Shown piece after piece: positions 38,569 to 64,000 of a stretch of DNA of 64,000 nucleotides (within the stretch, counting starts at the first letter, position 1; every line of letters starts with the position of its first letter). The notes beneath the pieces were generated by a model. That model did not search any database. It had not been told where the DNA came from and saw only the letters and a program-made list of their open reading frames with translations. This DNA is from Escherichia coli (GTDB taxonomy: Bacteria; Pseudomonadota; Gammaproteobacteria; Enterobacterales; Enterobacteriaceae). The stretch lies in NCBI RefSeq assembly GCF_003334405.1, contig NZ_QOWM01000005.1, one strand, 5' to 3'. The translations under genes and the position numbers were made by a program.

Positions 38569-38811
38569 TTGAACAGCAGAAAATTTGCGAGCATGATCGC
38601 AATTATTTCACTGCCAGGGATATCAATAGCTTCCAGTAAATCGCTACAGCAGGCAATTGCCAATATAAAAATCTGGCACAAGGGTGAACAGCGCGCGCCG
38701 CATAAGCCATTGTTATTGCTATACGTATTAGCGGGATACCTGAATGGACATCCGCGCCTTTTCGATTATTGTAGTGGAACAGTCTACGAGGATGCAGTTC
38801 GAAGTGAGTAA
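38569..38811 (+). other. unassigned 80 aa ORF divergent from the HNH gene
   Basis: Contains ...KIWHKGEQRAPHKPLLLLYVLAGYLNGHPRLF...; no confident family assignment. Confidence 0.25.
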
Positions 38812-39255
38812 GTAAAGGTTGCTGGAAACGATCAATGCCGCCATACAATGATTTTTTAGGATCAACAATGAGTAATAAAAACTACGAAAGTCACCGCAAA
38901 GCGATTGTTAGTAAAGGTATACCACCCGCTCTATTAAATAGGCTCACCAATTCGGATGTTCAGGTGATCAATACCTTCTTAACACGAGTGAGCAAACTGG
39001 AACTATCTCAACAAGAGAAAGACTGGATCATAAAAATCATCTCTATGGTTTAGACAATTTCAGCCTTGTAGCCTTTCAAGGGTTTTGTGTGGGTACAAAC
39101 ATTATCGAATCGGGGTATAGCCGCAGCTGTAGCTGTATCCACATCAGTAAGTTGATGTAGGTTGACTTAGGTTGAGCGAAAAATAGCGAAAAGCCTTGTG
39201 TGGCGCGGATTTCAGTCATAAAAAAACGTCCGTTGATGTCTATTGATGTTCCGAT

Positions 39256-39293
39256 GGTGCGAAGGTGCAAAGGTGCGAAGGCCGGACTCAAAC
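39256..39293. repeat. degenerate tRNA-Leu 3'-end-like sequence with a partial tandem duplication; probable island attachment-site remnant
   Basis: ggtgcgaaggccggactcaaac resembles the reverse complement of a tRNA-Leu acceptor/T-arm end (TGGTGCCGAAGGCCGGACTCGAACC); ggtgcgaagg also occurs immediately upstream. Confidence 0.4.
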
Positions 39294-43091: not shown

Positions 43092-44057
43092 TTATGCCGG
43101 TAACTCCGGGGGTAATGCTTCTTCCAGTCGGTTAACCATATTGCCGAGATGGGATGCATCATATTCCATGACGGGGCGTTGCCTGATGATACTGACCACC
43201 AGTGGTTTGATTAACATATTGGTCGCGGCCCGTTGTTGTATACCGGCGGCGAAAATGATCTCCAGAGCATTCTGATCGATAACACGGGCCAGATTCTCGT
43301 TCAGATTTTCAATCTCATGTCCGGTCAGCAGGAAACTGCCGGCAAGCCATGTCACCTGCTCCTGAATCATTGCCAGAATTTTGACGCGATCTTCTTCAAC
43401 CAGCGCTCCGGCAATTTTTCCTGATACAGCGGAGGCAATCATTCCCCCCAGAACACCGCCAACCACACGCCCTGTCAGTGCACCAAATGGTCCCAGTGGA
43501 CTGAACAGTATTCCGCCCGCCACTGACCCGACAGCACCACCTGCCACACCGGAAGATGCCACGGCAAGATTCCTGATGAACTGCGTACCGGAGATCCGTC
43601 CCCGCAACATTTTGATCATGTCAGGGCCGGTTGTGACAGCTACCAGTGCCAGAGATGTCACCAGCGTACCCTTCATCACTTTGTTCAGGGCACTGATATT
43701 TCCTGCACCGGTCCCCTTCTGAAGAGCCAGTCGAACAGTCGGGCTGGCAGTCGAAAAATCAATGTGCTTCAGCATACCCTGAACAACACTGAGCCGGTGG
43801 AGTTGCTGGGTTGTGACGTAGACAGCCAGTGTGCGGGTGAAGGTTTTTCCTGCCTGGACAGCAGCTGTCTGCAGGGCAGCATCGCGATCGCCGGTGCTGA
43901 GCCAGAAGACCGATGCCGTCAGGGCAAAACTGATCCCTCCGGCCGCCAGACTGACAACCGAACCCTCGGCAATATCATAAGTGACCGATTCGATGGTCCC
44001 GAACCGGGTGATATTACGGGCCTGAGTATAAGTCAGATGAGCCATACACGCGGCTTC
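43092..44057 (-). pseudogene. C-terminal fragment of an unidentified glycine-zipper-rich island protein, fused in-frame to a truncated IS66 tnpC
   Basis: Last ~320 codons of ORF 43092..45068; [41 protein letters not shown]; unlike IS66 TnpC C-termini. Confidence 0.35.
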
Positions 44058-45950
44058 CGTTATTCTGCCGGATTCGTATAACGCCCGGTAACCACCGTAA
44101 GCATCGGCCTGAAGCACACCGCTGTAACCGGCCAGGTGATTTTGTGGATGGATACCTTTCCGGTCCGGACTGTACGCGAACCAGACCGCCGGGGGCATCT
44201 GTGAACCGGCGTTACGGTCATCACGGACGTAGACCCACAGCCGGGCTGTCCGGGTTTTACCGCTGCCCGGCTCCTGGACCGGGACGGGGATATCATCAGC
44301 ATGGACTTTACCGGGCATCAGCACATACTGGCGCAGGACGTCATACAGCGGCTCCAGCAGTTCAGCAACAGCACCTGTCCAGCGCCCCAGTGTGGCACGG
44401 CTCAGCTCCACTCCCTGACGACGGTATATTTCTGACTGGCGGTATAACGGCAGATGGTCTGCATATTTCCCGGTGACAACATGGGCCAGAAGCCCCGCTC
44501 CGGCATAACTGCGTGCAATGGGTTTTGAAGGTACTGGTGCCTGCACGATATGGTCGCACCGGCAACAGGCCTGTTTCGGACGTTGTGTTTCGATAACCTT
44601 AAAGGCGCTGCTGATAAGCTCCAGTTGCTCTGACACATCACATCCCAGAGAACTGAGTTCACCACCACAGGCAGGACAGCATTCCTCTTCCGGCCGGATA
44701 ACCCGGGTTTCACGGGGAAGTGAGGCCGGTAACGGTTTACGGGCTGAAGACTGGCGCAGGGCGGATGGCAGTACCGGGTCATATTGCTCACCCAGCGTTT
44801 CCGCCATTTCTTCCTGAAGTGCGCTGATTCGCTCCTGTGCTTCCTGTATCTGCCGTTCGGTTTTTGCACGAAGTTTTTCTGAGCTTTTACCGAACTGCAT
44901 ACGTTGCAGTTTCGCAACCAGCGCCTTCAGCCGGTTGATTTCGGAAGCATAAGCCGCCACCCGCTGTGAGAGCAGGCGGTTGTATTCAGCCATCTGGCGG
45001 ATGGTGTCCTGTTGCGTCTGCAACAGTGCCCGCAGGCGGGCGTTCTCATGAGCAAGTGAGGTGTCCATATCCTCACTTTACAACGGGTTATATGCGGATT
45101 CCAGCGCGTTCCGTTCGTTTCGGGTGCTTCCAGTTGATACCTTCAAGAAGCATGGATAACTGAGCCGGAGTAAGGTGCACCTTGCCGTCACGGGTGACTG
45201 GCCAGACGAAGCGGCCCCGCTCCAGGCGTTTGGTGAAGAGGCACAGTCCGTCACTGTCAGCCCACAACACTTTTATCTGGTCACCCCGGCGTCCGCGGAA
45301 GATGAACAGGTGTCCGGAGAACGGGTCATCCTTCAGGACGTTCTGAACTTTTGATGCCAGGCCGTTAAAGCCATTTCGCATATCGGTGATACCTGCAACC
45401 AGCCAGATACGCGAACCTGCAGGGAGAGATATCATCAGTGGCTGCTCCCTTTTATTTCGCGGATAAGTGTCTGTAATAACGCCGGCGTCAGTTTACCTTT
45501 AAGCCTGAGAGTTCCGGCCGGCAGAACCAGCTCACAACACAGACTGTCGGACGGTGTATTTATCTGCTCTGGTTCCTGTGCGGGGGCCGGGATTTTATTA
45601 TCCGGCTCCGGCGTTAACGTCACGGGAAGCAGTGCCGGCATATTTTTTCCGGAAGGCAGCAGGCCACCTTTCCGGTATTGATGGCGCCAGTTGAAGAGCA
45701 GGTTATCGTTGATTCCGTTTTCCCGGGCGATCTGCGCCACACAGGCTCCGGGCTGCAGTGACTGCTCCACTAAGGCGATTTTAAACTCATAAGGGAAGTT
45801 GGGCCGCCGGGGACGTTTTTTTACCACGGGGGCTTCGGATATAACGGTGCTTTCAGGACGTACGACTGGTACCGTGGAAAATTGTCCGTAACCCTCAGTA
45901 TCAGCTGTGAGGTAACGTTCCGGCACGGGACGCTCCGCTTCAATGGCAAT
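44058..45950 (-). mobile_element. IS66-family element, copy 1, truncated at the tnpC 3' side
   Basis: tnpA-like (45435..45926), tnpB (45088..45435; WLVAGITDMRNGFNGL) and first ~337 codons of tnpC (CCPACGG zinc-finger, through EAACMAHL); boundaries approximate. Confidence 0.65.
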
Positions 45951-47811
45951 GTCAGCGAAAAGCTCCTGACTCTGCTGATACAGGAACTGAAGCGATGATC
46001 CCGTTACCTTCCGGGACCAAAATTTGGCTGGTTGCCGGTATCACCGATATGAGAAATGGCTTCAACGGCCTGGCTGCGAAAGTACAAACGGCGCTGAAAG
46101 ACGATCCCATGTCCGGCCATGTTTTCATTTTCCGGGGCCGCAGCGGCAGTCAGGTTAAACTGCTGTGGTCCACCGGTGACGGACTGTGCCTCCTGACCAA
46201 ACGGCTGGAGCGTGGGCGCTTCGCCTGGCCGTCAGCCCGTGATGGCAAAGTGTTCCTTACGCAGGCGCAGCTGGCGATGCTGCTGGAAGGTATCGACTGG
46301 CGACAGCCCAAGCGGCTGCTGACCTCCCTGACCATGCTGTAAATCTCTTTATCCTGGTTGTCACAGAATAAGCCCGGTAAAATACGGGCTTATGAACGAC
46401 ATCTCTTCTGACGACATCTTCCTGCTAAAACAGCGCCTGGCCGAACAGGAAGCGCTGATCCACGCCCTGCAGGAAAAGCTGAGCAACCGGGAGCGCGAAA
46501 TAGACCATCTGCAGGCGCAGCTGGATAAACTCCGCCGGATGAACTTCGGCAGTCGTTCCGAAAAAGTCTCCCGCCGTATCGCACAAATGGAAGCCGATCT
46601 GAACCGGCTTCAGAAAGAGAGCGATACGCTGACTGGTAGGGTGTATGACCCGGCAGTACAGCGTCCGTTGCGTCAGACCCGCACCCGTAAGCCGTTCCCT
46701 GAATCACTACCCCGTGACGAAAAGCGACTGTTGCCTGCGGCGCCGTGCTGCCCGAACTGCGGCGGTTCACTGAGCTATCTGGGCGAGGATACCGCCGAAC
46801 AGCTGGAGTTGATGCGTAGCGCATTCCGGGTTATCCGGACGGTACGGGAAAAACATGCCTGTACTCAGTGCGATGCCATCGTGCAGGCACCTGCACCTTC
46901 GCGGCCCATCGAGCGGGGTATCGCCGGACCGGGGCTGCTGGCCCGCGTGCTGACCTCGAAGTATGCAGAGCACACCCCGCTGTATTGCCAGTCAGAAATA
47001 TACGGCCGGCAAGGTGTGGAGCTGAGCCGTTCACTGCTGTCAGGCTGGGTGGATGCATGCTGCCGGCTGCTGTCTCCGCTGGAAGAGGCGCTTCATGGCT
47101 ATGTCATGACTGACGGCAAACTCCATGCCGATGATACCCCGGTCCAGGTACTGCTGCCGGGTAATAAGAAGACGAGGACCGGGCGGTTGTGGGCGTATGT
47201 TCGTGATGACCGCAATGCCGGGTCAGCGTTGGCACCTGCAGTGTGGTTCGCTTACAGCCCGGACAGAAAAGGCATCCATCCGCAGACTCATCTTGCTTGC
47301 TTCAGCGGTGTGCTGCAAGCGGATGCGTACGCCGGGTTCAACGAGCTGTATCGCAATGGTGGGATAACGGAAGCTGCCTGCTGGGCTCATGCCCGCCGAA
47401 AGATCCACGATGTGCACGTCCGCATCCCGTCAGCACTGACGGAAGAAGCCCTGGAGCAGATCGGTCAGTTGTACGCCATAGAGGCGGATATAAGGGGAAT
47501 GCCGGCAGAGCAGCGGCTTGCTGAACGTCAGCGAAAAACGAAACCGCTGTTGAAATCCCTGGAAAGCTGGTTGCGTGAAAAGATGAAGACCCTGTTCTTC
47601 GGCTCTGGCCATGGTGGTGAGCGGGGAGCGCTACTGTACAGCCTGATCGGGACGTGCAAACTGAATGACGTGGATCCAGAAAGCTACCTTCGCCATGTGC
47701 CTGGCGTCATAGCAGACTGGCCGGTCAACCGGGTCAGCGAACTGCTTCCGTGGCGCATAGCACTGCCAGCTGAATAACACATCCCCGTCAATACGGCCCT
47801 CGCTGTACGCT
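45951..47811 (+). mobile_element. IS66-family element, copy 2, lacking most of tnpA
   Basis: tnpA C-terminal tail (...EKLLTLLIQELKR), tnpB 45995..46342, tnpC 46392..47777 (461 aa), terminal GTAAGCG-type end at about 47805-47811; TnpB only ~75% identical to copy 1. Confidence 0.65.
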
Positions 47812-48015
47812 TACTTTTGTTCGGACTGCTTATGGCCTTTTTCCACTGGTGTAGCAGGAAAGTTAACCGGCTGCCACCATGAGATGACGTGTAAACCGTG
47901 CAGGCATGTTTTCACGTGGTGACGCTTTCATTGGGGGTCTACGCCGGAACCCCAATATTGTTCACATACATGAATTTGAAAAACTAAGCGATACTGCTGT
48001 CCGTACCTTATAAAC

Positions 48016-49374
48016 TTATTTCAACGCTTCCGGCAGCGTCACAATCCACAGTTCACTGTCAGACTCCGGTTTCTCCAGTGGCTTCACTCTGAGGGTCGTT
48101 TCAACCTGCTTGTCGTCAAGCGTCAGCTTTCCTTCCGCGTTCACCCGATAATCCTTGAATGTCTTGCCCTCGACCGGATGTTGCATCGCCACCTTCACGC
48201 CAAAGTCGTTATCGTTCGCCACCGCCAGCGTTTTGCTGTCGATCAGCGCCAACCCTTCAGCCTTCTCCTGCTGCCAGCCCAAGGAGCGCAGATCAACAAC
48301 CTGCGTTTTCTGCGCAAGGGTAATGCCGCGCTGTGACAGGGTTTTCTCATCATCAAACTCCGGATACTCACCCGGCTTGTCGAAGCCTGACAGGTCGCTC
48401 GCCTTATTGAGATCGACCTCGTAAATCAGGTTACGCATTCTGTTGTTTTTATCTCTTCCCTGTTCGATCAGCAGGATGTGCTGGTTATCGAGCGCCACGA
48501 TGTCTCCGATTTTAGCGTCGCTGTTTTTGCTGTAGGCCGCGCTGTCGATAGGATAACCGTACATCGCGGTTTTTCCGCTTGCCGGATCGAAGCTCACCAG
48601 ACGCGTAAACAGCGCCTTTTTCTTGCTCTTAGCGTCGATATCCAGCGTACTTTGCACGGCGACAATAATACGCCCGTCCGGCATACGGGTGAGGCCTTCA
48701 AAGCCGCGGTTCGCCTGACGCCATTTGAGGATATTTGGCAAACCGCCCGCAATCGCTTTTTCCCCTTCCGCCGCCTGCGGACCGTGGATTGCCAGGATTT
48801 TCCCTTTACTGTCGATGTTAATCAGGAACGGGCCATACTCATCGCACAGCCAGTAACCTCCTTTACCATCCGGAGTGATCCCTTCCGTATCCAGCCCGCG
48901 ATTATCCCCCTTCAGTCTATGTAACGTGTCGCTGAAGGCCACTTCATTGGTGGAGCCAATCACGTCGCTTGCCAGCGGCAGACCGTTGATCGCGCCTTTA
49001 TCGTCATGCAGAGGACGAGGATCGATGGCCTCCGCTTTGCCGTTTTGTACACGAATCGTCATCAGCAGCGGCGCGAAATCTGGCGTAACGAAAATTTTAG
49101 TTTCGTTTTTCCCCTCTTTCGGTGAATCCGCGTTCGGACCGCGATCGGTAATGGTTGCGAATGTCAGGGCATCGCCCTGTTTACCGGTGAACAGCAGGCC
49201 AGAACCTATCCCAACCGGAAGGCCGTTCGGGAATGCACTGGCAAATGCGCCGGCGTAGTTCACGTGCGTGCCTTCTGGAAAACTGACGACATAGCGCTCA
49301 GCCGTAGGTTGTGCCGCCAGGGCAGAGAAAGAGAGCGTACAACCGATTAGCACGGGAATAATTTTTCTTTTCAT
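48016..49374 (-). CDS. secreted phytase-like (esterase-like-activity-of-phytase family) protein
   Basis: ORF 48016..49389, start at MKRKIIPVLIGCTLSFSALAA signal peptide; repeated beta-propeller-like segments. Confidence 0.45.
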   Translation of the reverse strand: MKRKIIPVLIGCTLSFSALAAQPTAERYVVSFPEGTHVNYAGAFASAFPNGLPVGIGSGLLFTGKQGDALTFATITDRGPNADSPKEGKNETKIFVTPDFAPLLMTIRVQNGKAEAIDPRPLHDDKGAINGLPLASDVIGSTNEVAFSDTLHRLKGDNRGLDTEGITPDGKGGYWLCDEYGPFLINIDSKGKILAIHGPQAAEGEKAIAGGLPNILKWRQANRGFEGLTRMPDGRIIVAVQSTLDIDAKSKKKALFTRLVSFDPASGKTAMYGYPIDSAAYSKNSDAKIGDIVALDNQHILLIEQGRDKNNRMRNLIYEVDLNKASDLSGFDKPGEYPEFDDEKTLSQRGITLAQKTQVVDLRSLGWQQEKAEGLALIDSKTLAVANDNDFGVKVAMQHPVEGKTFKDYRVNAEGKLTLDDKQVETTLRVKPLEKPESDSELWIVTLPEALK

Positions 49375-49637
49375 ATTGTTAGCATCCATAAAGTGAAGAT
49401 CACACTACACCATAAAGAAGAAACGAGTCAGGAAAATGACATCGAATGGCAACATGCGCGGGCCTGAGGCCAAAGAAATGTAAAACACTGTTGTTATTTG
49501 TAACAACGGAAACATTTACGGAAATTATTTGTCTTTCTTCGTGATCAAAAATGCTGTGTCTTGTTGGATTGGAGTGATGAGGGCTGCGTTTAGGAAACGC
49601 CCTATATTGTACGGTTGCATTATCGCGGTAGGGGTAA

Positions 49638-49790
49638 TGCACGTGTCAGTATGATGAGCTGACCACACTCACGTGGGTGGACTGGTATAACAATCGACGA
49701 TTGCTGGAAAGGCAGGGCCATATCCCACCGGCAGAAGCAGAAAAAGCTTATTATGCTTCCATCGGAAACGATGATCTGGCAGCCTGAGTT
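49638..49790 (+). pseudogene. 3' remnant of an IS3-family transposase (integrase-core C-terminus)
   Basis: Frame reads ...WVDWYNNRRLLERQGHIPPAEAEKAYYASIG...stop, the conserved W-x-x-WYN-x-R-R-x-H...PAE transposase tail with no upstream part. Confidence 0.4.
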
Positions 49791-50013
49791 CACAGATAAA
49801 ACACTCTCCAGGAAACCCGGGGCGGTTCACTTAGCCGCGTGTCCATTATTGCTGGATAAGATCAGTCAATAATAGCAGACCAACCACATCATGAGTCATT
49901 CTGACCGACACATGCCAGAAGCAGAGGCTCCATCCCATTTTATACCTACCTTATAACACTTAGAAAAACAACATGTTAAAAATGTCTATTGGAAACAATT
50001 TTATTTCCAATTG

Positions 50014-50032
50014 TAATGATAACCATTCTCAT
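50014..50032. promoter_or_regulatory. Fur box upstream of fecI
   Basis: taatgataaccattctcat versus Fur consensus GATAATGATAATCATTATC. Confidence 0.6.
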
Positions 50033-50074
50033 ATTAATATGACTACGTGATAATTAACTTTTGATGCACTCCGC

Positions 50075-50592
50075 ATGTCTGACCGCGCCACTACCACAGC
50101 TTCCTTAACGTTCGAGTCGCTTTATGGCACACATCACGGCTGGTTGAAAAGCTGGCTGACGCGCAAACTCCAGTCTGCTTTTGATGCAGATGACATTGCC
50201 CAGGACACTTTTTTGCGGGTAATGGTCAGCGAAACGCTCTCGACGATCCGCGATCCTCGCTCCTTCCTCTGCACTATCGCCAAACGCGTGATGGTGGACC
50301 TGTTTCGCCGAAACGCGCTGGAAAAAGCGTATCTGGAGATGCTGGCGCTTATGCCGGAGGGGGGAGCGTCTTCACCTGAGGAACGCGAAAGCCAACTCGA
50401 GACCCTACAACTCCTCGACAGCATGCTGGACGGGCTAAACGGCAAAACACGTGAAGCGTTTCTGCTTTCGCAACTGGATGGTCTGACATACAGCGAGATT
50501 GCGCACAAACTCGGTGTTTCCATCAGCTCCGTGAAAAAATACGTGGCGAAAGCCGTCGAGCACTGCCTGCTGTTCCGTCTGGAGTATGGGTT

Positions 50593-50596
<4 letters not shown>
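50075..50596 (+). CDS. fecI: ECF sigma factor for ferric citrate transport
   Basis: 173 aa, recognisable FecI. Confidence 0.9.
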
Positions 50597-53957
<3,361 letters not shown>

Positions 53958-54001
53958 TGTGTTAACGCCCGGCTTGCCGGGCTTTTAGCTGGAATGTGAT
54001 T

Positions 54002-54904
54002 ATGTTGGCATTTATCCGTTTTGTTTTTGCAGGCCTGCTGCTGGTGATCAGCCACGCCTTTGCCGCCACGGTTCAGGACGAACACGGCACGTTTACACTC
54101 GAAAAAACGCCACAACGGATTGTGGTGCTGGAACTCTCGTTCGCCGATGCGCTGGCCGCCGTGGACGTCAGCCCGATCGGTATTGCCGACGATAACGATG
54201 CAAAACGCATCCTGCCCGAAGTGCGTGCGCACCTGAAACCGTGGCAGTCCGTCGGAACGCGCGCGCAGCCGAGCCTGGAAGCCATTGCCGCTCTGAAACC
54301 AGACCTGATCATTGCCGACAGCAGTCGCCATGCGGGGGTTTACATCGCCTTGCAGCAAATCGCGCCGGTACTGCTGCTTAAGTCCCGCAACGAAACCTAC
54401 GCTGAAAATTTGCAATCTGCGGCTATCATCGGCGAAATGGTGGGTAAAAAGCGAGAGATGCAGGCACGCCTGGAACAACATAAAGAGAGGATGGCGCAGT
54501 GGGCCAGCCAGCTTCCCAAAGGGACACGCGTGGCCTTTGGCACATCACGCGAACAGCAATTCAACCTGCATACTCAGGAGACCTGGACCGGCAGCGTGCT
54601 GGCCTCTCTGGGGCTGAACGTTCCCGCTGCGATGGCGGGTGCGTCCATGCCGTCCATCGGCCTGGAGCAACTGCTGGCGGTCAATCCTGCCTGGCTGCTG
54701 GTTGCCCACTATCGCGAAGAGAGCATTGTTAAACGCTGGCAACAAGATCCGCTCTGGCAGATGTTAACCGCCGCGCAGAAGCAGCAGGTTGCTTCGGTCG
54801 ACAGTAACACCTGGGCGCGGATGCGCGGTATTTTTGCTGCAGAGCGTATTGCCGCTGACACGGTAAAAATCTTCCACCATCAGCCGCTTACCGTTGTGAA
54901 ATGA
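54002..54904 (+). CDS. fecB: periplasmic ferric citrate-binding protein
   Basis: ORF 53996..54904, start at MLAFIRF for 300 aa. Confidence 0.9.
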   Translation: MLAFIRFVFAGLLLVISHAFAATVQDEHGTFTLEKTPQRIVVLELSFADALAAVDVSPIGIADDNDAKRILPEVRAHLKPWQSVGTRAQPSLEAIAALKPDLIIADSSRHAGVYIALQQIAPVLLLKSRNETYAENLQSAAIIGEMVGKKREMQARLEQHKERMAQWASQLPKGTRVAFGTSREQQFNLHTQETWTGSVLASLGLNVPAAMAGASMPSIGLEQLLAVNPAWLLVAHYREESIVKRWQQDPLWQMLTAAQKQQVASVDSNTWARMRGIFAAERIAADTVKIFHHQPLTVVK

Positions 54905-55899
54905 CCGCGATAAAACACCCGGTGCTGCTGTGGGGGCTTCCCGTTGCAGCACTTATTATTATTTTCTGGCTGAGTCTGTTTTGCTACTCGGCCATTCCTG
55001 TTTCCGGAGCAGATGCAACCCGCGCCCTGCTGCCTGGACACACGCCAACGCTACCAGAAGCGCTGGTGCAAAACCTTCGTTTGCCACGAAGCCTGGTCGC
55101 CGTTCTGATCGGCGCAAGCCTGGCGCTCGCGGGCACGCTGCTGCAAACCCTGACCCACAACCCAATGGCCTCTCCTTCACTGCTCGGCATTAACAGCGGC
55201 GCGGCGCTGGCTATGGCGCTTACCAGCGCGCTGAGTCCGACGCCGATTGCAGGCTATTCTCTGTCGTTCATCGCGGCATGCGGGGGCGGCGTGAGCTGGC
55301 TGCTGGTCATGACCGCAGGAGGCGGATTTCGTCATACCCATGACAGAAACAAACTGATCCTCGCGGGTATCGCGCTGTCGGCCTTTTGTATGGGCCTTAC
55401 CCGCATCACCCTGCTGCTGGCCGAAGATCATGCTTACGGCATCTTTTACTGGCTGGCAGGCGGAGTGTCCCACGCCCGCTGGCAGGATGTCTGGCAGCTC
55501 TTGCCGGTGGTGGTCACTGCAGTCCCTGTCGTGTTGCTGCTGGCGAATCAACTGAACCTGCTCAACCTCAGCGACAGCACCGCCCATACGCTGGGAGTGA
55601 ACCTGACGAGGCTACGTTTGGTCATCAATATGTTAGTGCTGCTTCTGGTTGGTGCGTGCGTCAGCGTGGCAGGTCCGGTGGCGTTTATCGGTCTGCTGGT
55701 GCCACATCTGGCGCGCTTCTGGGCAGGCTTCGATCAGCGCAACGTACTGCCAGTGAGCATGCTGCTGGGGGCCACGCTGATGCTGCTGGCAGATGTACTC
55801 GCACGCGCGCTGGCCTTCCCCGGAGATCTGCCCGCAGGCGCAGTGCTGGCGCTGATTGGCAGCCCTTGCTTTGTCTGGCTTGTGAGGAGGCGAGGATGA
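54901..55899 (+). CDS. fecC: ferric citrate ABC permease
   Basis: 332 aa FecCD-family permease. Confidence 0.9.
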   Translation: MTAIKHPVLLWGLPVAALIIIFWLSLFCYSAIPVSGADATRALLPGHTPTLPEALVQNLRLPRSLVAVLIGASLALAGTLLQTLTHNPMASPSLLGINSGAALAMALTSALSPTPIAGYSLSFIAACGGGVSWLLVMTAGGGFRHTHDRNKLILAGIALSAFCMGLTRITLLLAEDHAYGIFYWLAGGVSHARWQDVWQLLPVVVTAVPVVLLLANQLNLLNLSDSTAHTLGVNLTRLRLVINMLVLLLVGACVSVAGPVAFIGLLVPHLARFWAGFDQRNVLPVSMLLGATLMLLADVLARALAFPGDLPAGAVLALIGSPCFVWLVRRRG

Positions 55900-56852
55900 A
55901 AATTGCGCTGGTTATTTTCATCACCCTTGCCCTGGCGGGCTGTGCGCTGTTATCACTCCATATGGGAGTGATCCCCGTGCCGTGGCGCGCGCTGCTGACC
56001 GACTGGCAGGCCGGACGCGAGCATTATTATGTATTGATGGAGTACCGACTGCCGCGCTTGCTGCTGGCACTGTTTGTCGGTGCAGCCCTCGCCGTGGCGG
56101 GCGTGCTGATACAGGGGATTGTGCGCAACCCTCTGGCATCACCGGATATTCTCGGCGTTAACCATGCCGCCAGCCTGGCCTCTGTGGGGGCTCTACTTCT
56201 TATGCCGTCACTGCCCGTGATGGTGCTGCCGCTGCTGGCCTTTGCGGGCGGCATGGCGGGGTTGATATTGCTGAAGATGCTGGCAAAGACCCACCAGCCG
56301 ATGAAGCTGGCGCTCACCGGCGTGGCGCTTTCTGCATGCTGGGCCAGCCTGACGGATTATCTGATGCTCTCGCGCCCGCAGGATGTGAACAACGCCCTGC
56401 TGTGGCTGACCGGCAGCTTATGGGGCCGTGACTGGAGCTTTGTGAAGATTGCCATCCCGCTGATGATTTTATTTCTGCCGCTGAGCCTGAGTTTTTGCCG
56501 CGATCTCGACCTCCTTGCACTCGGCGATGCGCGCGCCACCACGCTCGGTGTGTCGGTGCCCCATACCCGATTCTGGGCTTTGTTACTAGCTGTCGCCATG
56601 ACATCTACCGGCGTGGCCGCCTGCGGCCCGATTAGCTTTATTGGTCTCGTGGTGCCGCATATGATGCGTAGCATCACCGGTGGACGTCACCGCAGACTGC
56701 TGCCTGTTTCAGCCCTGACAGGTGCGTTGCTGTTGGTGGTTGCCGATCTGCTGGCGAGAATTATTCATCCCCCACTGGAGCTCCCGGTTGGCGTGCTGAC
56801 CGCCATTATCGGTGCGCCGTGGTTTGTCTGGTTGCTTGTGAGAATGCGATAA
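55896..56852 (+). CDS. fecD: ferric citrate ABC permease
   Basis: ORF 55386..56852 trimmed to MKIALVIFITLALAG for 318 aa, ATGA overlap with fecC. Confidence 0.85.
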   Translation: MKIALVIFITLALAGCALLSLHMGVIPVPWRALLTDWQAGREHYYVLMEYRLPRLLLALFVGAALAVAGVLIQGIVRNPLASPDILGVNHAASLASVGALLLMPSLPVMVLPLLAFAGGMAGLILLKMLAKTHQPMKLALTGVALSACWASLTDYLMLSRPQDVNNALLWLTGSLWGRDWSFVKIAIPLMILFLPLSLSFCRDLDLLALGDARATTLGVSVPHTRFWALLLAVAMTSTGVAACGPISFIGLVVPHMMRSITGGRHRRLLPVSALTGALLLVVADLLARIIHPPLELPVGVLTAIIGAPWFVWLLVRMR

Positions 56853-57620
56853 ATGACTTTACGAACTGAAAATCTGACGGTCAGTTACGGGACAGACAAG
56901 GTACTTAACGACGTTTCACTCTCACTGCCAACGGGGAAGATCACCGCCCTGATCGGTCCTAACGGTTGCGGGAAATCGACGCTGTTAAACTGTTTTTCGC
57001 GGCTTTTAATGCCGCAGTCTGGCACCGTATTTCTCGGCGATAATCCCATAAATATGCTCTCATCGCGCCAGTTGGCCCGCAGGCTTTCGCTGCTGCCTCA
57101 GCACCATTTAACGCCAGAGGGGATCACAGTCCAAGAGCTGGTTTCGTATGGTCGTAATCCCTGGCTGTCACTCTGGGGGCGTCTCTCCGCTGAAGACAAT
57201 GCACGAGTTAATGTCGCCATGAACCAGACCCGGATCAATCATCTTGCCGGTCGTCGGTTAACCGAGCTTTCCGGCGGTCAGCGCCAGCGCGTATTTCTGG
57301 CGATGGTCCTGGCCCAGAATACGCCCGTTGTATTACTTGATGAGCCAACCACCTATCTTGATATCAATCACCAGGTGGACCTGATGCGGTTGATGGGCGA
57401 ACTCCGGACTCAGGGGAAAACGGTGGTCGCTGTGCTGCACGACCTTAATCAGGCTAGCCGGTACTGCGATCAACTGGTGGTAATGGCAAACGGACATGTT
57501 ATGGCGCAAGGCACACCAGAAGAGGTGATGACCCCAGGATTGCTGAGAACAGTATTCAGCGTGGAAGCGGAAATACACCCCGAGCCGGTATCTGGCAGGC
57601 CGATGTGCCTAATGAGGTAG
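56853..57620 (+). CDS. fecE: ferric citrate ABC ATPase
   Basis: 255 aa; Walker A GPNGCGKST and LSGGQRQR signature. Confidence 0.9.
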   Translation: MTLRTENLTVSYGTDKVLNDVSLSLPTGKITALIGPNGCGKSTLLNCFSRLLMPQSGTVFLGDNPINMLSSRQLARRLSLLPQHHLTPEGITVQELVSYGRNPWLSLWGRLSAEDNARVNVAMNQTRINHLAGRRLTELSGGQRQRVFLAMVLAQNTPVVLLDEPTTYLDINHQVDLMRLMGELRTQGKTVVAVLHDLNQASRYCDQLVVMANGHVMAQGTPEEVMTPGLLRTVFSVEAEIHPEPVSGRPMCLMR

Positions 57621-58177
57621 ATTGCACAGGCCGTAAGAACCAAACCACGACTGAATGAAACTGGACTGGCGCCAGCAAGCCTGTTCAGACTGGGGCTGAA
57701 CTTTTCCGGACTCTGAAAGATTACCAATACTCATCGTCCATCCGCTTGCTTTAGGCTGACAGGTTCATAATCAACGCAAACCAGAGCTGTACAGGCTTGG
57801 GCGCGGCTTTCAAACCAGTCGTGATCACGGCAATCAATTTTGAACTCTGCTTAACGGACATTTCTGTATAACCCTTACGGCAACGAAAAACGCGAAGTTA
57901 AAATTTTAGAAACCCAAAAACGTGACATGACTAAGTTTAGATTTCAGGGGGGGAGATCAAAAAATTTCGCTCTGTGCCAGAGCGGACATTCACGGAGCTG
58001 GTTCATTACCAATGAGGTTGGGCTTTTGAGGATAAATCAATGATCAGACGCCAACGTAAATCAAAAGCAACCCTGGAACGGAATTGCTAATCCAGTTTCT
58101 GACCATCGATTTTTCTAAAAAGTGTGCGTTTGCTACTACTTAGGTAGGTGCAGCTTTCTTAATCACCGGCAGCCACG

Positions 58178-58519
58178 TTATACAGGCCAGTTGATGGATC
58201 GATTGTTATCAATGATATCTTCATGAGTCGGTGTCTCACCCAGCTTACCGAAGCTGGCATAAAGTGAAGGCAGACGGGCCCGTCCTTCTCCCTTTTTCGC
58301 CAGAGGGAAAGCGCGAAGCATGGTGGCAGCCTCCCAGTCACAACAATAGGATGGTGTGCACGGCTGCTGACGCCATGATTCAGCGATAGAGCCGGAAAAT
58401 ACGGGGTCAAAGCCGGTATCATTAACCAGAGTCATCGTGACCTGTACTGCGGCTGGATGATCTCCTGCTACTGCAACTGCTAGGCGACCGCGGCTCCCTT
58501 CAGGTAGTGAAGTGGTCAA
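58178..58519 (-). pseudogene. C-terminal fragment of an NAD(P)-binding oxidoreductase-like gene
   Basis: 113 aa ORF resembling only the C-terminal part of F420/NADP-type oxidoreductases (VAGDHPAAVQVTMTLVNDTGFDPV); no N-terminal Rossmann motif. Confidence 0.3.
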
Positions 58520-58795
58520 CTTAAACTGGCCACCGATTTAGAGTTTTTCCAGTAGCGGTGTTCCGATTCGTTTGGGGGCAACCCGCCGTTATTGTCATGC
58601 GGTCTTAGCGAGCTGTAATACCCGATGATATAGTCTGTGATCGCATGAGCAGCTTCGCTAAAGCTTATGCGTTAGCGCTCTACAGAAGTACAGAGCATGT
58701 CTGCACGGTTGCTCTGGGTTATAGAGCAAAATTGCGGGTATATTGAAAGGTGGTACGCAATTTATTACGTGAAAAAGCTGTAATTTCTAGCCAGT

Positions 58796-58817
58796 GTTAC
58801 GTAAAATATAACGTAAC
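58796..58817. promoter_or_regulatory. palindrome at the dnd promoter, candidate DndB operator
   Basis: GTTACGT-aaaatata-ACGTAAC containing TACG-N10-CGTA, overlapping a TAAAAT -10-like hexamer 21 bp upstream of dndB. Confidence 0.35.
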
Positions 58818-58837
58818 AAAATTCACCTTATGCTTTT

Positions 58838-59935
58838 ATGGATTACAGCATGGCTAGTGTTGATGCAGATTACTGCTACTCGTTTCCGGCTATACGTGGC
58901 ATTCAGGCTGGTCGCCCTTTCTATATCGCCACATGCCCGATGCGTATCATCCCGAAAATATTCAGTTTTGATGAAAATGATGTGCCACCGGAATTACGCG
59001 CACAGCGCACGCTAAATAAATCGCGCATTCCCGAGATGGTACGTTATTTGTTGGAAAACCCTAAAGATTATGTGTTTTCAGCTCTGACGGCTTCCATTGC
59101 CGTAGACGTTCAATTTGATGAGTTTCCAGGTTCTAACAATCTGGGGACGTTGTGCGTACCAATGGATGCGCAAATTCTAATCAATGATGGACAACATCGC
59201 CGTAAAGCGATTGAAGACGCTTTAGACGCTCGTCCGGAGCTGGGCCAGGATAATATCCCGGTGTTGTTCTTTGTCGATGAAGGCTTAAAGCGTAGCCAGC
59301 AGATGTTCGCCGATCTGAATAAATACGCCATTCGCCCCAGCCCATCGCTGGCGTCGCTATACGATCATCGCGATGCCTGTTCGAATCTGGCGCGTTATCT
59401 GGCAATGTCAGTAGAGCCGTTTGTTGGGATGACGGAACTGGAAAAATCTGGCATTAGCCAGAGGTCGAATAAGCTATTTACGTTGAGCAGCATCAAGCAG
59501 GCTACCCGCGCATTGTTGGGCAAAGATCCCAAAGAGGATAACTTTGAGGAATGCACCCACATTGCTACCCAATATTGGCAGGCTATTTTTAGTGTAATGC
59601 CTGATTGGCAATTAGCGGCTAAAAAGGAAGTTTCACCGGTTCAATTGCGACAAGATTATGTTCACGCTCATGGCATTGGATTGCAGGCACTTGGGCAACT
59701 AGGATATACCCTGCTGACGGATTATCCTGAGCAATGGCCGGAGAAAATCGCTGCACTCAAAACATTTAACTGGCGTAGAAACAATCCGGACCTCATCAAG
59801 CGAGCGATGCAGCATGGGAAGTTGAGTAAAACCAGTACCGCGATCCAGTTAACCTGCAATGCGCTAAAAACCGCACTCTCAATTCCCCTCACTCCTGAAG
59901 AACAGGAGCTTGAAGCTCAAATGGTTGTCTCATGA
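58838..59935 (+). CDS. dndB: DndB-like DGQHR-domain protein (regulator of DNA phosphorothioation)
   Basis: 365 aa with exact DGQHR motif (LINDGQHRRKAIEDAL); first gene of a four-gene coupled operon. Confidence 0.8.
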   Translation: MDYSMASVDADYCYSFPAIRGIQAGRPFYIATCPMRIIPKIFSFDENDVPPELRAQRTLNKSRIPEMVRYLLENPKDYVFSALTASIAVDVQFDEFPGSNNLGTLCVPMDAQILINDGQHRRKAIEDALDARPELGQDNIPVLFFVDEGLKRSQQMFADLNKYAIRPSPSLASLYDHRDACSNLARYLAMSVEPFVGMTELEKSGISQRSNKLFTLSSIKQATRALLGKDPKEDNFEECTHIATQYWQAIFSVMPDWQLAAKKEVSPVQLRQDYVHAHGIGLQALGQLGYTLLTDYPEQWPEKIAALKTFNWRRNNPDLIKRAMQHGKLSKTSTAIQLTCNALKTALSIPLTPEEQELEAQMVVS

Positions 59936-61554
59936 GTAAATTAGTTCAGGCCTATGATTTGGCCGAATACGAAGATTTTATTAATCAGGAACAGTTCGCC
60001 GGACGTCCTCTGGCCGAATATGTTGCTGAGGTTCAACGAATTTATTGTGCGGATAAACGTCCGTGGGTGATTGGCTACAGCGGTGGGAAAGATTCTTCCG
60101 CTGTGATCACGCTGGTGTATCTGGCCTTGCTCGGCCTGCCCCCGGAAATGCGCAGCAAAGATATTTTTGTGGTGTCGTCCGATACGCTGGTCGAAACACC
60201 GGTAGTCGTGGATCTGATTAAGAAAACGATGTTGCAGATTGAGGCGGGAGCGAAGCGTAACGGCTTGCCGATCACTCAACACGCGGTAACGCCTAAAACG
60301 AATGAAACCTTCTGGGTCAATTTGCTGGGGAAAGGTTATCCGGCTCCAACTCGTAGTTTCCGTTGGTGCACTGAGCGCATGAAAATCAACCCGGTGAGTG
60401 ACTTTATTAAAGATAAGGTCAGCCAGTTTGATGAAGTCATCGTCGTACTTGGTTCGCGCAGTAGTGAAAGTGCTTCTCGTGCGCAGGTGATCGCAAAGCA
60501 CAAGATTGATGGATCACGCCTTGCCCGGCATACCACGCTGGCAAATGCATTCATCTATACCCCCATTGATACCTGGGATGTAGAAGATGTCTGGAAGCTG
60601 CTGCGGGGCGCGTTCCGCTATGCCCCTGAAGATATCGACGAGTGGGAAAGCCCGTGGGGTGGAAACAACCGTCCACTGTGGACGTTGTATATGGATTCTT
60701 CCGCACAGGGTGAATGTCCTCTGGTAATTGATGATAGTACCCCTTCCTGCGGCAACTCGCGTTTTGGCTGTTGGACCTGTACCGTTGTCACTAAAGATAA
60801 GGCGATGGAAAGCCTGATCAAAAACGGTGAAGAATGGATGTCTCCGTTGCTGAAATATCGTGATCTGCTGGCATTTACCACCGATCCGGTGAATAAAGAC
60901 ACGTTTCGAAACTATAAGCGCCGTACTGGTAAGGTGAGCTATCAGTACGCTAAAGAAAGTGATGAGCCGGGGGCTGAGCGTAAGCATGTTCCAGGTCCTT
61001 ACTGGCTAAAATACCGTCAGCAATGGCTCAAAGAATTGCTGGAGATAGAGCGCGATTTGAATGCTCAAGGCCATACCATTACGTTAATTACCAAACCAGA
61101 GCTGCATGCGATTCGTCAGGAGTGGTTGAAAGATCCTAATGAACCAGACTGGTATGACACGCTGCCGGGTATTTACCGTGAAGTGTATCAACAGGATTTA
61201 GACTGGGTGGTGGACGATCAGTCGCGCTTTGATGCCAGCGATGCAGATCTGTTGGTGCAGATAGCGCAGGGATTTGACGTTGTGCCTGAAATGGTGATGA
61301 AACTCATCGAGCTGGAAGTTTCAATGGAAGGCTTAAGCCGTCGTCAGGGCATTTTTGACAAACTTGGCACGATTTTAAAGCAGGACTGGGGCACTCTCGA
61401 AGAAATTGAACAACAACAGGTCACTCTGCAAAAACGAGTTGAACGAGATATTCATCAGGAAGAACTTACAAAGCTGGAAACTGAACTTCAGGTTTTACAG
61501 CGCAGAATTGTTGATGCCAGTGAATCCTCGTTACTGATTGGGGAGGAGAAATAA
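59932..61554 (+). CDS. dndC: DndC-like PAPS-reductase-fold sulfurtransferase
   Basis: 540 aa; PP-loop SGGKDSS; cysteine cluster CGNSRFGCWTC; ATGA overlap with dndB. Confidence 0.85.
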   Translation: MSKLVQAYDLAEYEDFINQEQFAGRPLAEYVAEVQRIYCADKRPWVIGYSGGKDSSAVITLVYLALLGLPPEMRSKDIFVVSSDTLVETPVVVDLIKKTMLQIEAGAKRNGLPITQHAVTPKTNETFWVNLLGKGYPAPTRSFRWCTERMKINPVSDFIKDKVSQFDEVIVVLGSRSSESASRAQVIAKHKIDGSRLARHTTLANAFIYTPIDTWDVEDVWKLLRGAFRYAPEDIDEWESPWGGNNRPLWTLYMDSSAQGECPLVIDDSTPSCGNSRFGCWTCTVVTKDKAMESLIKNGEEWMSPLLKYRDLLAFTTDPVNKDTFRNYKRRTGKVSYQYAKESDEPGAERKHVPGPYWLKYRQQWLKELLEIERDLNAQGHTITLITKPELHAIRQEWLKDPNEPDWYDTLPGIYREVYQQDLDWVVDDQSRFDASDADLLVQIAQGFDVVPEMVMKLIELEVSMEGLSRRQGIFDKLGTILKQDWGTLEEIEQQQVTLQKRVERDIHQEELTKLETELQVLQRRIVDASESSLLIGEEK

Positions 61555-61555
61555 C

Positions 61556-63556
61556 GTGCTCATTAAACAGCTGGTATTACATAATTTTCGGGTATTTAAC
61601 GGTACACATACCATTGATCTGGCACCCAGAAAGCGTCCGCACGATTTGAATCCACGACCTATTGTGCTGTTTGGTGGTTTAAACGGCGCAGGGAAAACGT
61701 CTATCCTGTCGGCGATCCGCATAGCGTTGTATGGACGACTGGCGTTTGGGCTAGCGACTCAACAGCAAGAGTATATCGAACAACTCAGTGCATTGATTCA
61801 TAACGGCGCGTACTATATTGAGCAGCCGGAAGAAGCATCTGTAGAACTGACGTTTACCTATAATAAAGGCGGTCATGAGGCCGAATTTACCGTTACGCGA
61901 ACCTGGAAAAAGGGGAAGAGGGACCGCCTTTCTCTGCAACAGGATGGGCAGCCACTCAGTGAGCTGGATTACGATCAGTGCCAGGGATTTCTAAATGAGT
62001 TAATTCCGCATGGCATTGCTGATTTGTTCTTTTTCGATGGCGAGAAAATTGCAGAACTTGCTGAGGACGAATCCGGTAATATTTTACGTACTGCCGTACG
62101 ACGCTTATTGGGGCTGGATCTCATCTCTAAACTGCGTAACGATTTAATGATTTTTGTTAAGCGTCAGCAATCCAGCCAGCTAGCAAGTTCTCAGCAACAA
62201 CAGATTGCAGAGCTTGAAAAACAGAGTAAAGAATTAGCCTGCCAGACAGAAGCACTGCTGGAAAGCGCCGATTTTGCCAAATCGCGGATTGAGTTTCTAT
62301 CTAAAGATATAACCCATTATGAAGGCTTGCTAAATGCTCAGGGGGGCGCTTTTGCCCAGACTAAAGCGCAGGAAAAACAGAAAGTCGAAACGCTGCTAAA
62401 AGATAAAGAACATCTGGAAAAAGCACTGAGACAAGAATGCGATGGCTCGCTACCTTATGCGCTTGCGCCCACTATTTTGTCTCATTTGCTGCAACAAATT
62501 GCTGATGAAACGCAAATTAAACAGGCAAAAAGCTTTGAAAAAGAGCTGAGCCAGTTTTTAACGCAACTCAGAAATGATATTGCATTTCGTTCTGCGGGGA
62601 CTGGCAAAATAGCAGCTGAAGCGATTACCGATAATCTAAAAGATTATATGGCAACGAAACCAAAAGGTGATTTGCTCTTTGATATCTCTGAGCGTGAAGC
62701 AGGTATGCTTCAACAGTCTATTGAGATAGATAGTAAAAGAGCATGGCAGCGTTTCGAGCTTTATCGCACACAGTTATCTGAGATTGAACAACAGTTAGAA
62801 CAAGCGGCTGCTAATATTGCCCGCGCTCCTGAAGATGAGCAGCTGATGGATCTCTTTGAAAAATTACGTGACCTGGATAGGCAGCGCGAAGCCCAATTGC
62901 AGAAATATCGGTCATTGCTAGAAGATGCTAAACGTAAAAAACAGCAGCAACTGGATTGTGTTCGTCAGATTCAAAAAGCGCATGACGCCGCTCGTTATCA
63001 GCACAGTTATAGCAGTGCGTTTAAGAATGCTCAGGAAACGATAAATTTACTCGATCGCTACAGCGATGTATTAACCCAGGCTCGGGTAAAAACGCTGTCG
63101 ACAAACTTCGAGCTTGCTTACCGTAAGTTGGCTCGCAAAGAGGATTTACAACTTAGTGCGCATATCAACCCTCAAACGTTTGATGTTGAATTAATTGATG
63201 AGAATGGCTCAGTAATTAACCGTAAGTTACTTTCTGCTGGTGAAAAACAGATTTATGCAATTGCTATTCTTGAGGCGCTGGCGAAAACCTCTGGCCGTGA
63301 TTTACCAGTGATCATTGATACACCATTGGGTCGTCTGGACTCTCAACATCGAGATAAATTGATTAATCACTACTTCCCTGAAGCCAGTCATCAGGTTGTG
63401 TTGCTTTCTACCGATACTGAAGTAGATGAACGTTATTTTGTTGATCAGTTGCGTGATGATATCTCTCATGCTTATGAGATTGTGTTTAATGCACATACTA
63501 AGTCATCAACGCTGAAGCCTGGTTATTTCTGGGAATTAACTAAGGAGGCTATCTGA
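61556..63556 (+). CDS. dndD: DndD-like SMC/ABC-type ATPase
   Basis: GTG start after SD gggaggag; Walker A GGLNGAGKTS; long coiled-coil middle; C-terminal DTPLGRLD signature-like segment. Confidence 0.8.
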   Translation: MLIKQLVLHNFRVFNGTHTIDLAPRKRPHDLNPRPIVLFGGLNGAGKTSILSAIRIALYGRLAFGLATQQQEYIEQLSALIHNGAYYIEQPEEASVELTFTYNKGGHEAEFTVTRTWKKGKRDRLSLQQDGQPLSELDYDQCQGFLNELIPHGIADLFFFDGEKIAELAEDESGNILRTAVRRLLGLDLISKLRNDLMIFVKRQQSSQLASSQQQQIAELEKQSKELACQTEALLESADFAKSRIEFLSKDITHYEGLLNAQGGAFAQTKAQEKQKVETLLKDKEHLEKALRQECDGSLPYALAPTILSHLLQQIADETQIKQAKSFEKELSQFLTQLRNDIAFRSAGTGKIAAEAITDNLKDYMATKPKGDLLFDISEREAGMLQQSIEIDSKRAWQRFELYRTQLSEIEQQLEQAAANIARAPEDEQLMDLFEKLRDLDRQREAQLQKYRSLLEDAKRKKQQQLDCVRQIQKAHDAARYQHSYSSAFKNAQETINLLDRYSDVLTQARVKTLSTNFELAYRKLARKEDLQLSAHINPQTFDVELIDENGSVINRKLLSAGEKQIYAIAILEALAKTSGRDLPVIIDTPLGRLDSQHRDKLINHYFPEASHQVVLLSTDTEVDERYFVDQLRDDISHAYEIVFNAHTKSSTLKPGYFWELTKEAI

Positions 63557-63909
63557 TGCTCCCGAATCGAATGGCGCTTAGCCGTCAGACTGAAGATCAG
63601 CTTAAAAAGCTTAAAGGGTATACTGGGATTACACCCAATATTGCTGCCCGGCTAGCATTTTTCCGCTCGGTGGAGAGTGAGTTTCGCTATTCACCTGAAC
63701 GAGATAGTAAGAAGCTGGATGGTACGCTGGTGCTGGATAAAATTACGTGGCTGGGGGAGACACTACAAGCTACAGAATTGGTGCTGAAGATGCTTTATCC
63801 ACAATTAGAGCAAAAGGCGTTGATTAAGGCATGGGCTGCTCATGTTGAGGATGGGATTGCGGCATTGAGAAATCATAAAAGTTTAATTAGCTTATTAAAT
63901 GCTATATAA
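63556..63909 (+). CDS. dndE: DndE-like small protein
   Basis: 117 aa, start overlaps dndD stop; position and size match DndE. Confidence 0.7.
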   Translation: MLPNRMALSRQTEDQLKKLKGYTGITPNIAARLAFFRSVESEFRYSPERDSKKLDGTLVLDKITWLGETLQATELVLKMLYPQLEQKALIKAWAAHVEDGIAALRNHKSLISLLNAI

Positions 63910-63953
63910 AACATTTAAATTTATTGGTATGACCTTTTGTTTTCAACCTAAAA

Positions 63954-63977
63954 CCACCTCCTAGGGAGGTGGTGATT
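63954..63977 (+). terminator. hairpin after dndE
   Basis: ccacctcc-tagg-gaggtgg inverted repeat. Confidence 0.4.
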
Positions 63978-64000
63978 GAGTTTTATAATTGTCATATTGC

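Follow-up and report, generated by a model that had tools for sequence, protein, structure and literature searches.

Between fec and dnd in Escherichia coli: a gene-free interval that is probably a seam of stacked remnants at an orphan IS911-family end

In one Escherichia coli genome the fecIRABCDE genes are followed, after about 1.2 kb of DNA, by the dndBCDE defence genes, and the locus raises the question of what lies between the two groups and how they came to be neighbours. The stretch analysed here, referred to as the window, comprises 64,000 nt of E. coli contig NZ_QOWM01000005.1. An earlier note on it had placed the interval between fecE and dndB at 57621-58837, had found there no intact gene but only a minus-strand open reading frame (ORF) of 113 aa, and had supposed that dnd was inserted next to fec, leaving the ORF as a scar. 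The interval is probably better described as a stack of dead pieces at the seam of two modules within a composite leuX island. Judged from sequence comparison, the real dnd-associated scar is a 161-bp insertion-sequence stub, and not the tail of an oxidoreductase gene that the ORF represents.

The left anchor of the interval is fecE, the last gene of fecIRABCDE (56853-57620, plus strand), placed from the ORF list and from the RefSeq annotation of the identical sequence in B7A, whose annotation was re-mapped onto the window wherever used. The B7A chromosome is 99.97% identical to positions 45890-64000 of the window, and the 1,217 bases of 57621-58837 are 100% identical in B7A and in eleven further complete genomes. 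The right anchor is dndB (58850-59935, plus strand), which codes for 361 aa. The start taken previously, 58838, is an in-frame ATG upstream of 58850; the latter is most likely the correct one, because it is the RefSeq start and gives the 361 aa found in most of the listed DndB homologues, and the gene-free interval is therefore 57621-58849. With this correction the absence of an intact gene stands, since none is present in 57621-58849 either in the ORF list or in the RefSeq annotation of the identical B7A sequence; the ORF, however, is not the only remnant, as an ISKpn21 relic and the 161-bp IS911-family stub lie there as well. From left to right the interval is made up of a non-coding spacer, the oxidoreductase fragment yjhV, the stub and DNA native to the dnd island, an anatomy that we regard as practically certain.

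The 113-aa ORF (58178-58519, minus strand) opens with a TTG in the ORF list; this TTG and the first four codons (58508-58519) are not gene sequence but part of the inverted repeat of an insertion sequence. The remainder had been read as the C-terminal part of an oxidoreductase, and rightly so: residues 6-113 align, with 80% identity over 108 aa (E=1e-68), to the end (residues 141-248) of a Pantoea 'NAD(P)-binding domain' protein of 248 aa. By alignment with this homologue and by the K-12 annotation, positions 58178-58507 on the minus strand hold the last 109 codons and the stop of yjhV (residues about 141-248), the C-terminal 44% of a 248-aa gene; the K-12 counterpart is the 330-nt pseudogene yjhV (b4286), located between fecE and IS911B. 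The only strong Pfam domain of the Pantoea protein is F420_oxidored (PF03807), a Rossmann, NADP-binding domain at residues 2-93. This domain is wholly missing from the window fragment, which shows C-terminal homology to the F420/NADP oxidoreductase family but is a pseudogene and no functional member of it.

The comparison covered 5,426 complete E. coli genomes, together with plasmids and a few draft contigs. The portion 57621-58667, comprising the spacer, yjhV and the start of the IS911-family sequence, is found with about 97% identity in 2,604 of the complete genomes, K-12 among them; it occurs also on plasmids, in one case a Klebsiella resistance plasmid lacking fec. Conversely, the full interval from fec to dnd is present in only 12 of the 5,426. 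In about 2,600 genomes the yjhV fragment stops where an IS911-family tip begins, and this point agrees among them to within 1-2 nt; in YJ4 and K-12 yjhV is followed by IS911, full or disrupted, and then by KpLE2 genes, nanXY among them, and dnd is absent from the locus. When the full-length Pantoea gene was used as blastn query, 2,686 E. coli genomes gave a match, all of them covering just the 3' 43-45% of the gene (about nt 415-747 of 747). An intact gene in related genomes was looked for, as the earlier note had proposed, and was not found: no genome of the 5,426 holds more than about 45% of it. Beyond E. coli, a contig search with the yjhV fragment gave relatives of at most 53% identity among the matches listed, and a protein search with yjhV returned no close full-length homologue, only fragments and read-through fusions between the C-terminus of IS911 orfB and yjhV. 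In strains bearing IS911, called ORFs of 116-181 aa (proteins P0001-P0004) run from the orfB C-terminus through the inverted repeat into yjhV; they are annotation artefacts, some of them labelled '3-hydroxyisobutyrate dehydrogenase, partial'. Because about 2,600 genomes share the truncation while only 12 have the fec-dnd junction and none has the 5' half, the comparison assigns the truncation to an insertion sequence, makes it a feature fixed wherever the fec module occurs and places it before dnd. That it is independent of dnd can be taken as almost certain.

The break in yjhV abuts an orphan right end of an IS911-family element (IS3 family), 161 bp long (58508-58668, minus strand), recognised from alignments and annotated in RefSeq as 'IS3 family transposase, incomplete'. 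Its outer part is a right inverted repeat (IRR) of 36 bp (58508-58543, TGAAGTGGTCAACTTAAACTGGCCACCGATTTAGAG), which begins TGAAGTGGTCAAC, with 5'-TG outermost, and aligns with the IRR of IS911 in YJ4 and SE11 and with that of a Klebsiella IS3-family element. Its coding part (58516-58668) is the 3' end of orfB, 50 codons long, whose stop codon falls within the IRR. These features, a 36-bp repeat starting TGAAGTGG and an orfB C-terminus that ends inside the repeat, are shared with IS911, an IS3-family element that transposes by copy-out/paste-in, but only 161 of about 1,250 bp are kept; no orfA, catalytic domain or left inverted repeat is present in the stub, and homology to the full element ends at 58668. 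It is thus a remnant and not an element, and cannot be mobile on its own. Its best relatives are elements on Klebsiella and Salmonella plasmids: identity to an IS3-family element of a Klebsiella michiganensis plasmid is 94% in nucleotides and 88% in amino acids, whereas divergence from E. coli IS911 is visibly greater, with mismatches scattered from nt 14 onward.

In its distribution the stub follows dnd. It is found in 15 of the 5,426 complete E. coli genomes, one copy in each, always adjoining dndB and always with the same internal breakpoint to the DNA upstream of dndB, while a full-length copy of the same isoform occurs in none of them. The inner breakpoint falls between 58668 and 58669, within 1 nt, since full-element homology stops at 58668 and homology to a 91%-identical dnd island, one with Zorya as its left neighbour, starts at 58670; the sequence across the junction of stub and dndB upstream DNA is GCTTCGCTAAAGCTTATGCGTTAGCGCTCTACAG. 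The stub belongs, with good probability, to the dnd lineage, and it can be used as a lineage marker for the B7A-type dnd island. In the SE11-type dnd island (L018 5680-6904) a full-length, frameshifted IS911 lies upstream of dndB in the same orientation, its outer tip abutting the region downstream of nanM; two independent lineages of dnd islands in E. coli thus have their distal edge marked by an IS911-family element.

Since the outer tip of the stub abuts four unrelated left flanks, this tip is the recombining edge. The left neighbour is yjhV and fec in 12 complete genomes and many draft assemblies, the region upstream of mtnK in UMB200201_11 and one draft assembly, a 5' (orfA) fragment of another IS3-family element in FORC_041 and JNE082640, and IS66 tnpB in one draft assembly. 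In every case similarity among the four contexts begins exactly at the T of the TGAAGTGG tip. In Eco-15, the one dnd-negative strain examined for the mtnK site, the DNA there is uninterrupted and without an insertion sequence; the mtnK junction therefore reads as a tip joined to naive DNA and not as an exchange in which two copies of an insertion sequence took part. The tip junctions at yjhV are GTAG/TG in the window, GTAGT/TG in YJ4 and GTAGTC/TG in K-12, with offsets of 0, 1 and 2 nt. K-12 KpLE2 (fecE, yjhV b4286, IS911B) indeed has the same fecE stop, the same 557-bp spacer and the same 330-nt fragment, ending in the same orientation at an IS911-family right-end tip, with the tip junction 2 nt away from that of the window. 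It differs in that its IS911 is split by IS30 and IS600 and is followed by yjhD/E, nanXY and intB, while in the window a stub of foreign isoform is fused to dndB. Comparison with dnd-negative fec loci, which the earlier note had recommended for finding the breakpoints, was carried out and gave two that are specific to dnd, one between 58507 and 58508, at the insertion-sequence tip, and the other at about 58668/58669, inside the insertion sequence.

The other end of the dnd module lies outside the window. In B7A the genes that follow are dndE, an ATP-dependent nuclease gene with a DUF262 gene, dptHGF, a tyrosine integrase gene, tRNA-Leu (leuX) and the core genes ahr and idn; the tyrosine recombinase comes directly after dptF, 200 bp from the tRNA-Leu gene, and leuX is located about 12.5 kb past the window end. 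In the dndDB database the B7A island is a 17.9-kb leuX-proximal segment (PMC2663466), a length that agrees with the distance from the stub, at 58.6 kb, to leuX in B7A. Islands of dnd and dpt genes at tRNA-leuX are listed there for B7A (17.9 kb), Salmonella SARA23 (19.7 kb) and Enterobacter 638, and the dndBCDE genes of the window are those of the B7A island, anchored at leuX and provided with their own integrase. leuX is defence hotspot #37 of E. coli, with Dnd in about 2% of isolates (PMC12707154), and leuX islands often carry fec (PMC7545054). dnd is not a simple insertion next to fec: within a composite island at leuX it makes up the module nearest the tRNA gene and has an integrase of its own (PMC2663466). 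What holds of the earlier proposal is that two horizontally acquired modules meet here with no functional gene between them, and what fails is the scar, as the oxidoreductase tail is older than dnd.

The earlier note had reported no direct repeats flanking dnd within the window, and none could be found there, as would be anticipated for a module whose right end, with the integrase and tRNA-leuX, is about 12.5 kb beyond the window. The 3' end of leuX has no match in the window within 3 mismatches. A degenerate copy of it, GGTGCGAAGGCCGGACTCAAAC, at about 39270-39292 (region 39151-39292), is the sole one in the window, and none is present at the left edge of dnd. In front of this copy lie 96 nt with 77% identity to the DNA separating leuX from the integrase of the dnd island; the copy would enclose both fec and dnd. 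A tblastn search of the window with the integrase gave no match, and no integrase gene is found near 39.27 kb. Region 39151-39292 looks like a fossil attachment (att) junction of an older tandem island. For the published dnd/dpt islands at leuX it is the tRNA-proximal end that has been described, whereas the window shows the distal edge, formed by an insertion-sequence stub in place of an att repeat.

The history proposed for the seam begins with one old mobile module formed by fecIRABCDE, the 557-bp spacer and yjhV, in which, as comparison shows, an IS911-family insertion cost the oxidoreductase its NADP-binding half before the module spread through E. coli. The dndBCDE-dptFGH-integrase unit is a separate defence island anchored at leuX, the tRNA-proximal module of the composite island; because the stub occurs only with dnd, the distal edge of this unit is taken to be an orphan, foreign IS911-family right end, which meets the dndB promoter at an unvarying internal breakpoint, and not an att site. 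The two modules would have been joined at the very tip of the orphan end, at a distance of 1 nt from the IS911 tip of YJ4-type strains and of 2 nt from that of K-12, and the join would have removed the resident IS911 together with all the DNA between it and dnd. IS911 inserts preferentially beside sequences that resemble its own inverted repeats. An IS911-type transposase acting in trans would use the orphan IRR and attack next to the resident IS911 end, with deletion of the intervening DNA. This account of the seam as a whole is considered probable; the joining of the tip by a transposase is put forward more tentatively, as a step somewhat likelier to be wrong than right. A bolder version, in which the orphan right end is not inert and transposases of the IS911 type repeatedly join its tip in trans to new targets, including sites beside resident IS911 ends with deletion of what lies between, is rather unlikely.

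Several points weigh against the proposed history. The activity of a transposase on a lone IRR, with adjacent deletion, is extrapolated from the targeted insertion of IS911. The comparison set consisted of complete E. coli genomes, plasmids and a few draft contigs; the likely donors are Salmonella, Klebsiella and Citrobacter. Moreover, the join lies within 1-2 nt of the IS911 tip in dnd-negative strains, which could be explained by descent from the insertion sequence that cut yjhV.

This last point is the core of the main rival explanation, according to which the stub is a leftover of the very insertion sequence that first interrupted yjhV, and hence a property of the fec module: elsewhere IS911 would have overwritten it by gene conversion, while here a deletion would have run from its nt 161 to the DNA upstream of dndB, and the resulting stub-dnd unit would later have moved. 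Descent gives a simple reason for a tip 1 nt from that of YJ4-type and 2 nt from that of K-12 IS911; the insertion sequence annotated at the site does vary (IS911, ISEc52, 'IS3 family') while its flank is about 99% identical, and SE11-type dnd islands too have an IS911 upstream of dndB in the same orientation. However, the stub isoform lies beside yjhV in no fec-positive genome without the dnd junction, where it would have outranked the matches at 97.5%; it is also found without fec in three other contexts and never without dnd, so that tip-precise relocations would still be needed. Descent is therefore regarded as unlikely, although it is the most serious competitor. A join made without any transposase has also to be considered, since islands shrink most commonly through deletions between insertion-sequence copies in direct repeat: RecA recombination between the stub and a full-length IS911-family copy of the same orientation further to the left would delete the DNA between them, and each of the different left flanks would stem from such an event. 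Strains of the K-12 and YJ4 types do carry a full IS911 in the right place and orientation. Yet E. coli IS911 differs from the stub from nt 14 on, and in the alignments every stub is of pure isoform, without IS911-like patches beyond nt 13, which weighs against a RecA crossover with the resident IS911; a full-length copy of the stub isoform is absent from the complete genomes, and the mtnK site of Eco-15 offers no insertion sequence to recombine with. Such recombination is accordingly rated as clearly improbable. The original idea, that dnd on inserting beside fec truncated the oxidoreductase and left the 113-aa tail, has in its favour that the tail sits between the modules with its 5' end towards dnd. 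It is hardly credible in view of the same truncation at an IS911-family tip in about 2,600 genomes, yjhV of K-12 included, against 12 with the fec-dnd junction, of a missing half that no E. coli genome retains, and of a break abutted by the insertion-sequence stub and not by dnd DNA.

A rival of a different kind holds that the interval is conserved by a hidden functional element, which might be a small RNA, encode a small protein or regulate fec. It is suggested by the spacer, 557 bp of non-coding DNA beside fecE (57621-58177), with a GC content of 0.46 against 0.58 in the fec genes and no ORF longer than 41 aa, which is about 99% conserved wherever fec occurs and is carried together with fecE by 2,744 E. 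coli genomes and also by plasmids. However, an Rfam scan of 57400-59000 identified no family, its sole match being a plant microRNA at E=0.46, treated as noise; a promoter and terminator scan gave counts within shuffled expectation, with no promoter-like site above it, and no gene is annotated there in K-12. The degree of conservation is that of the whole recently spread module, and the content is recognisable debris, namely an ISKpn21 relic and a pseudogene. A functional element is thus very improbable. The transposase-joined seam of two modules remains the preferred reading, with the strengths given above for its parts.

The debris in the spacer includes 25 codons of an ISKpn21-like (ISNCY family) transposase on the minus strand (57770-57844), corresponding to residues 147-171 of a 467-aa protein. 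The protein match has 68% identity (tblastn, E=3e-7), and at the DNA level positions 57762-57840 are 80% identical to ISKpn21 transposase genes (blastn); this stretch accounts for most of the 1,285 plasmid records that blastn returned at 80-90% identity. Copies of ISKpn21 that match the relic are found on a large number of plasmids of Klebsiella and other enterobacteria. The relic hints that the fec module once passed through a replicon bearing ISKpn21. Also in the spacer, about 195 nt downstream of the yjhV stop, a consensus scan located on the minus strand a hairpin that resembles a terminator (57958-57984; a 7-bp stem with 5 G-C pairs, a T-run and the tail AAATTTTTTG); it may once have ended transcription of the oxidoreductase gene.

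The remainder of the interval (58669-58849, plus strand; GC content 0.39) is DNA native to the dnd island and forms the promoter and operator region of dndB, being homologous to the 91%-identical island from 58670 and to the 85%-identical SE11-type island from 58720. The putative -10 element is TAAAAT at 58802-58807, which would place the transcription start near 58815. Two operator boxes for DndB are predicted on the plus strand: box 1 (TACGCAATTTATTACGTG, 58754-58771) follows the pattern TACG-N10-CGTA with one mismatch (CGTG) and is perfect in the SE11-type island, while box 2 (TACGTAAAATATAACGTA, 58798-58815) is perfect, overlaps the putative -10 and is kept in KE55-type and SE11-type islands. 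Both boxes are retained by E. coli dnd islands whose divergence is 9% and 15%. A single box of this kind is no rarer than chance, with 12 in the window against 16.7 expected, and the evidence for the boxes therefore lies in their pairing and position. In Salmonella enterica Cerro 87 DndB binds two TACG-N10-CGTA boxes, footprinted at -72 to -40 and -14 to +4, and represses dndBCDE (PMC4507180). The window likewise has two boxes, 44 bp apart from start to start and less than 100 bp from the dndB start, in positions that fit the Cerro 87 footprints if transcription starts near 58815; it differs in the CGTG mismatch of box 1. The two boxes would let DndB repress dndBCDE, and the last 100 bp or so would be the sole part of the interval with a present function.

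Further variation is seen inside the dnd island and to the left of fec. Between dndE and dptH, B7A has an AAA_15 ATP-dependent nuclease gene and a DUF262/GmrSD_N gene (L001 18372-21178, just past the window), FORC_041 a gene for a DGQHR protein and a hypothetical gene, SE11 a hypothetical gene and a restriction endonuclease gene, and KE55 nothing; in two of the loci compared with B7A the slot has the coordinates L007 14463-16156 and L008 14249-14534. It appears to be a variable slot for accessory defence genes. At 38626-38790 (plus strand) the window holds, truncated, the first 54 codons of a gene for a 'phosphorothioated DNA-binding restriction endonuclease', 91% identical to a 290-aa gene of FORC_041. 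The gene is annotated as full-length in FORC_041, and JNE082640 has the same protein; both strains also carry dndBCDE, and a phosphorothioate-dependent nuclease in a phosphorothioate-modifying host is odd. In the place occupied by IS1F in K-12, just upstream of fecI (49656-49787, plus strand), the window has a remnant of another IS3-family transposase gene, coding for its C-terminus. Neither IS911 nor the stub resembles this remnant; fec is thus not flanked by two copies of one insertion sequence, and the idea that it is a composite transposon was rejected. Left of 45.9 kb, collinearity with the complete B7A chromosome (NZ_CP035812.1) breaks down: positions 14821-40085 correspond to B7A 433341-458604, positions 44040-45889 have no counterpart among the B7A loci compared, and missing from the window are the IS2 of B7A and about 14 kb of its DNA, in which Ag43, yfjI, a GTPase gene and others lie.

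These findings are ordinary, and what is important at the locus is largely known, being already annotated or published; the four tip-precise contexts of the stub and its confinement to the dnd lineage are a minor new detail, and the stub as distal edge with its four alternative left neighbours is absent from the literature found on dnd islands. The findings nevertheless correct an attractive but wrong inference, as the pseudogene predates dnd and is common to about half of all E. coli, and they provide exact coordinates for the point where the fec module meets the dnd defence island. If the orphan right end is indeed joined repeatedly by transposases acting in trans, this would explain the four tip-precise contexts and the offsets of 0, 1 and 2 nt at yjhV, and a dead insertion-sequence end would be a standing rearrangement site, by which the dnd module is trimmed and given new neighbours within the leuX hotspot. 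That the distal edge of a dnd island is remodelled at the tip of an insertion sequence, instead of at an att site, is in any case a modest observation on the shuffling of modules in this hotspot.

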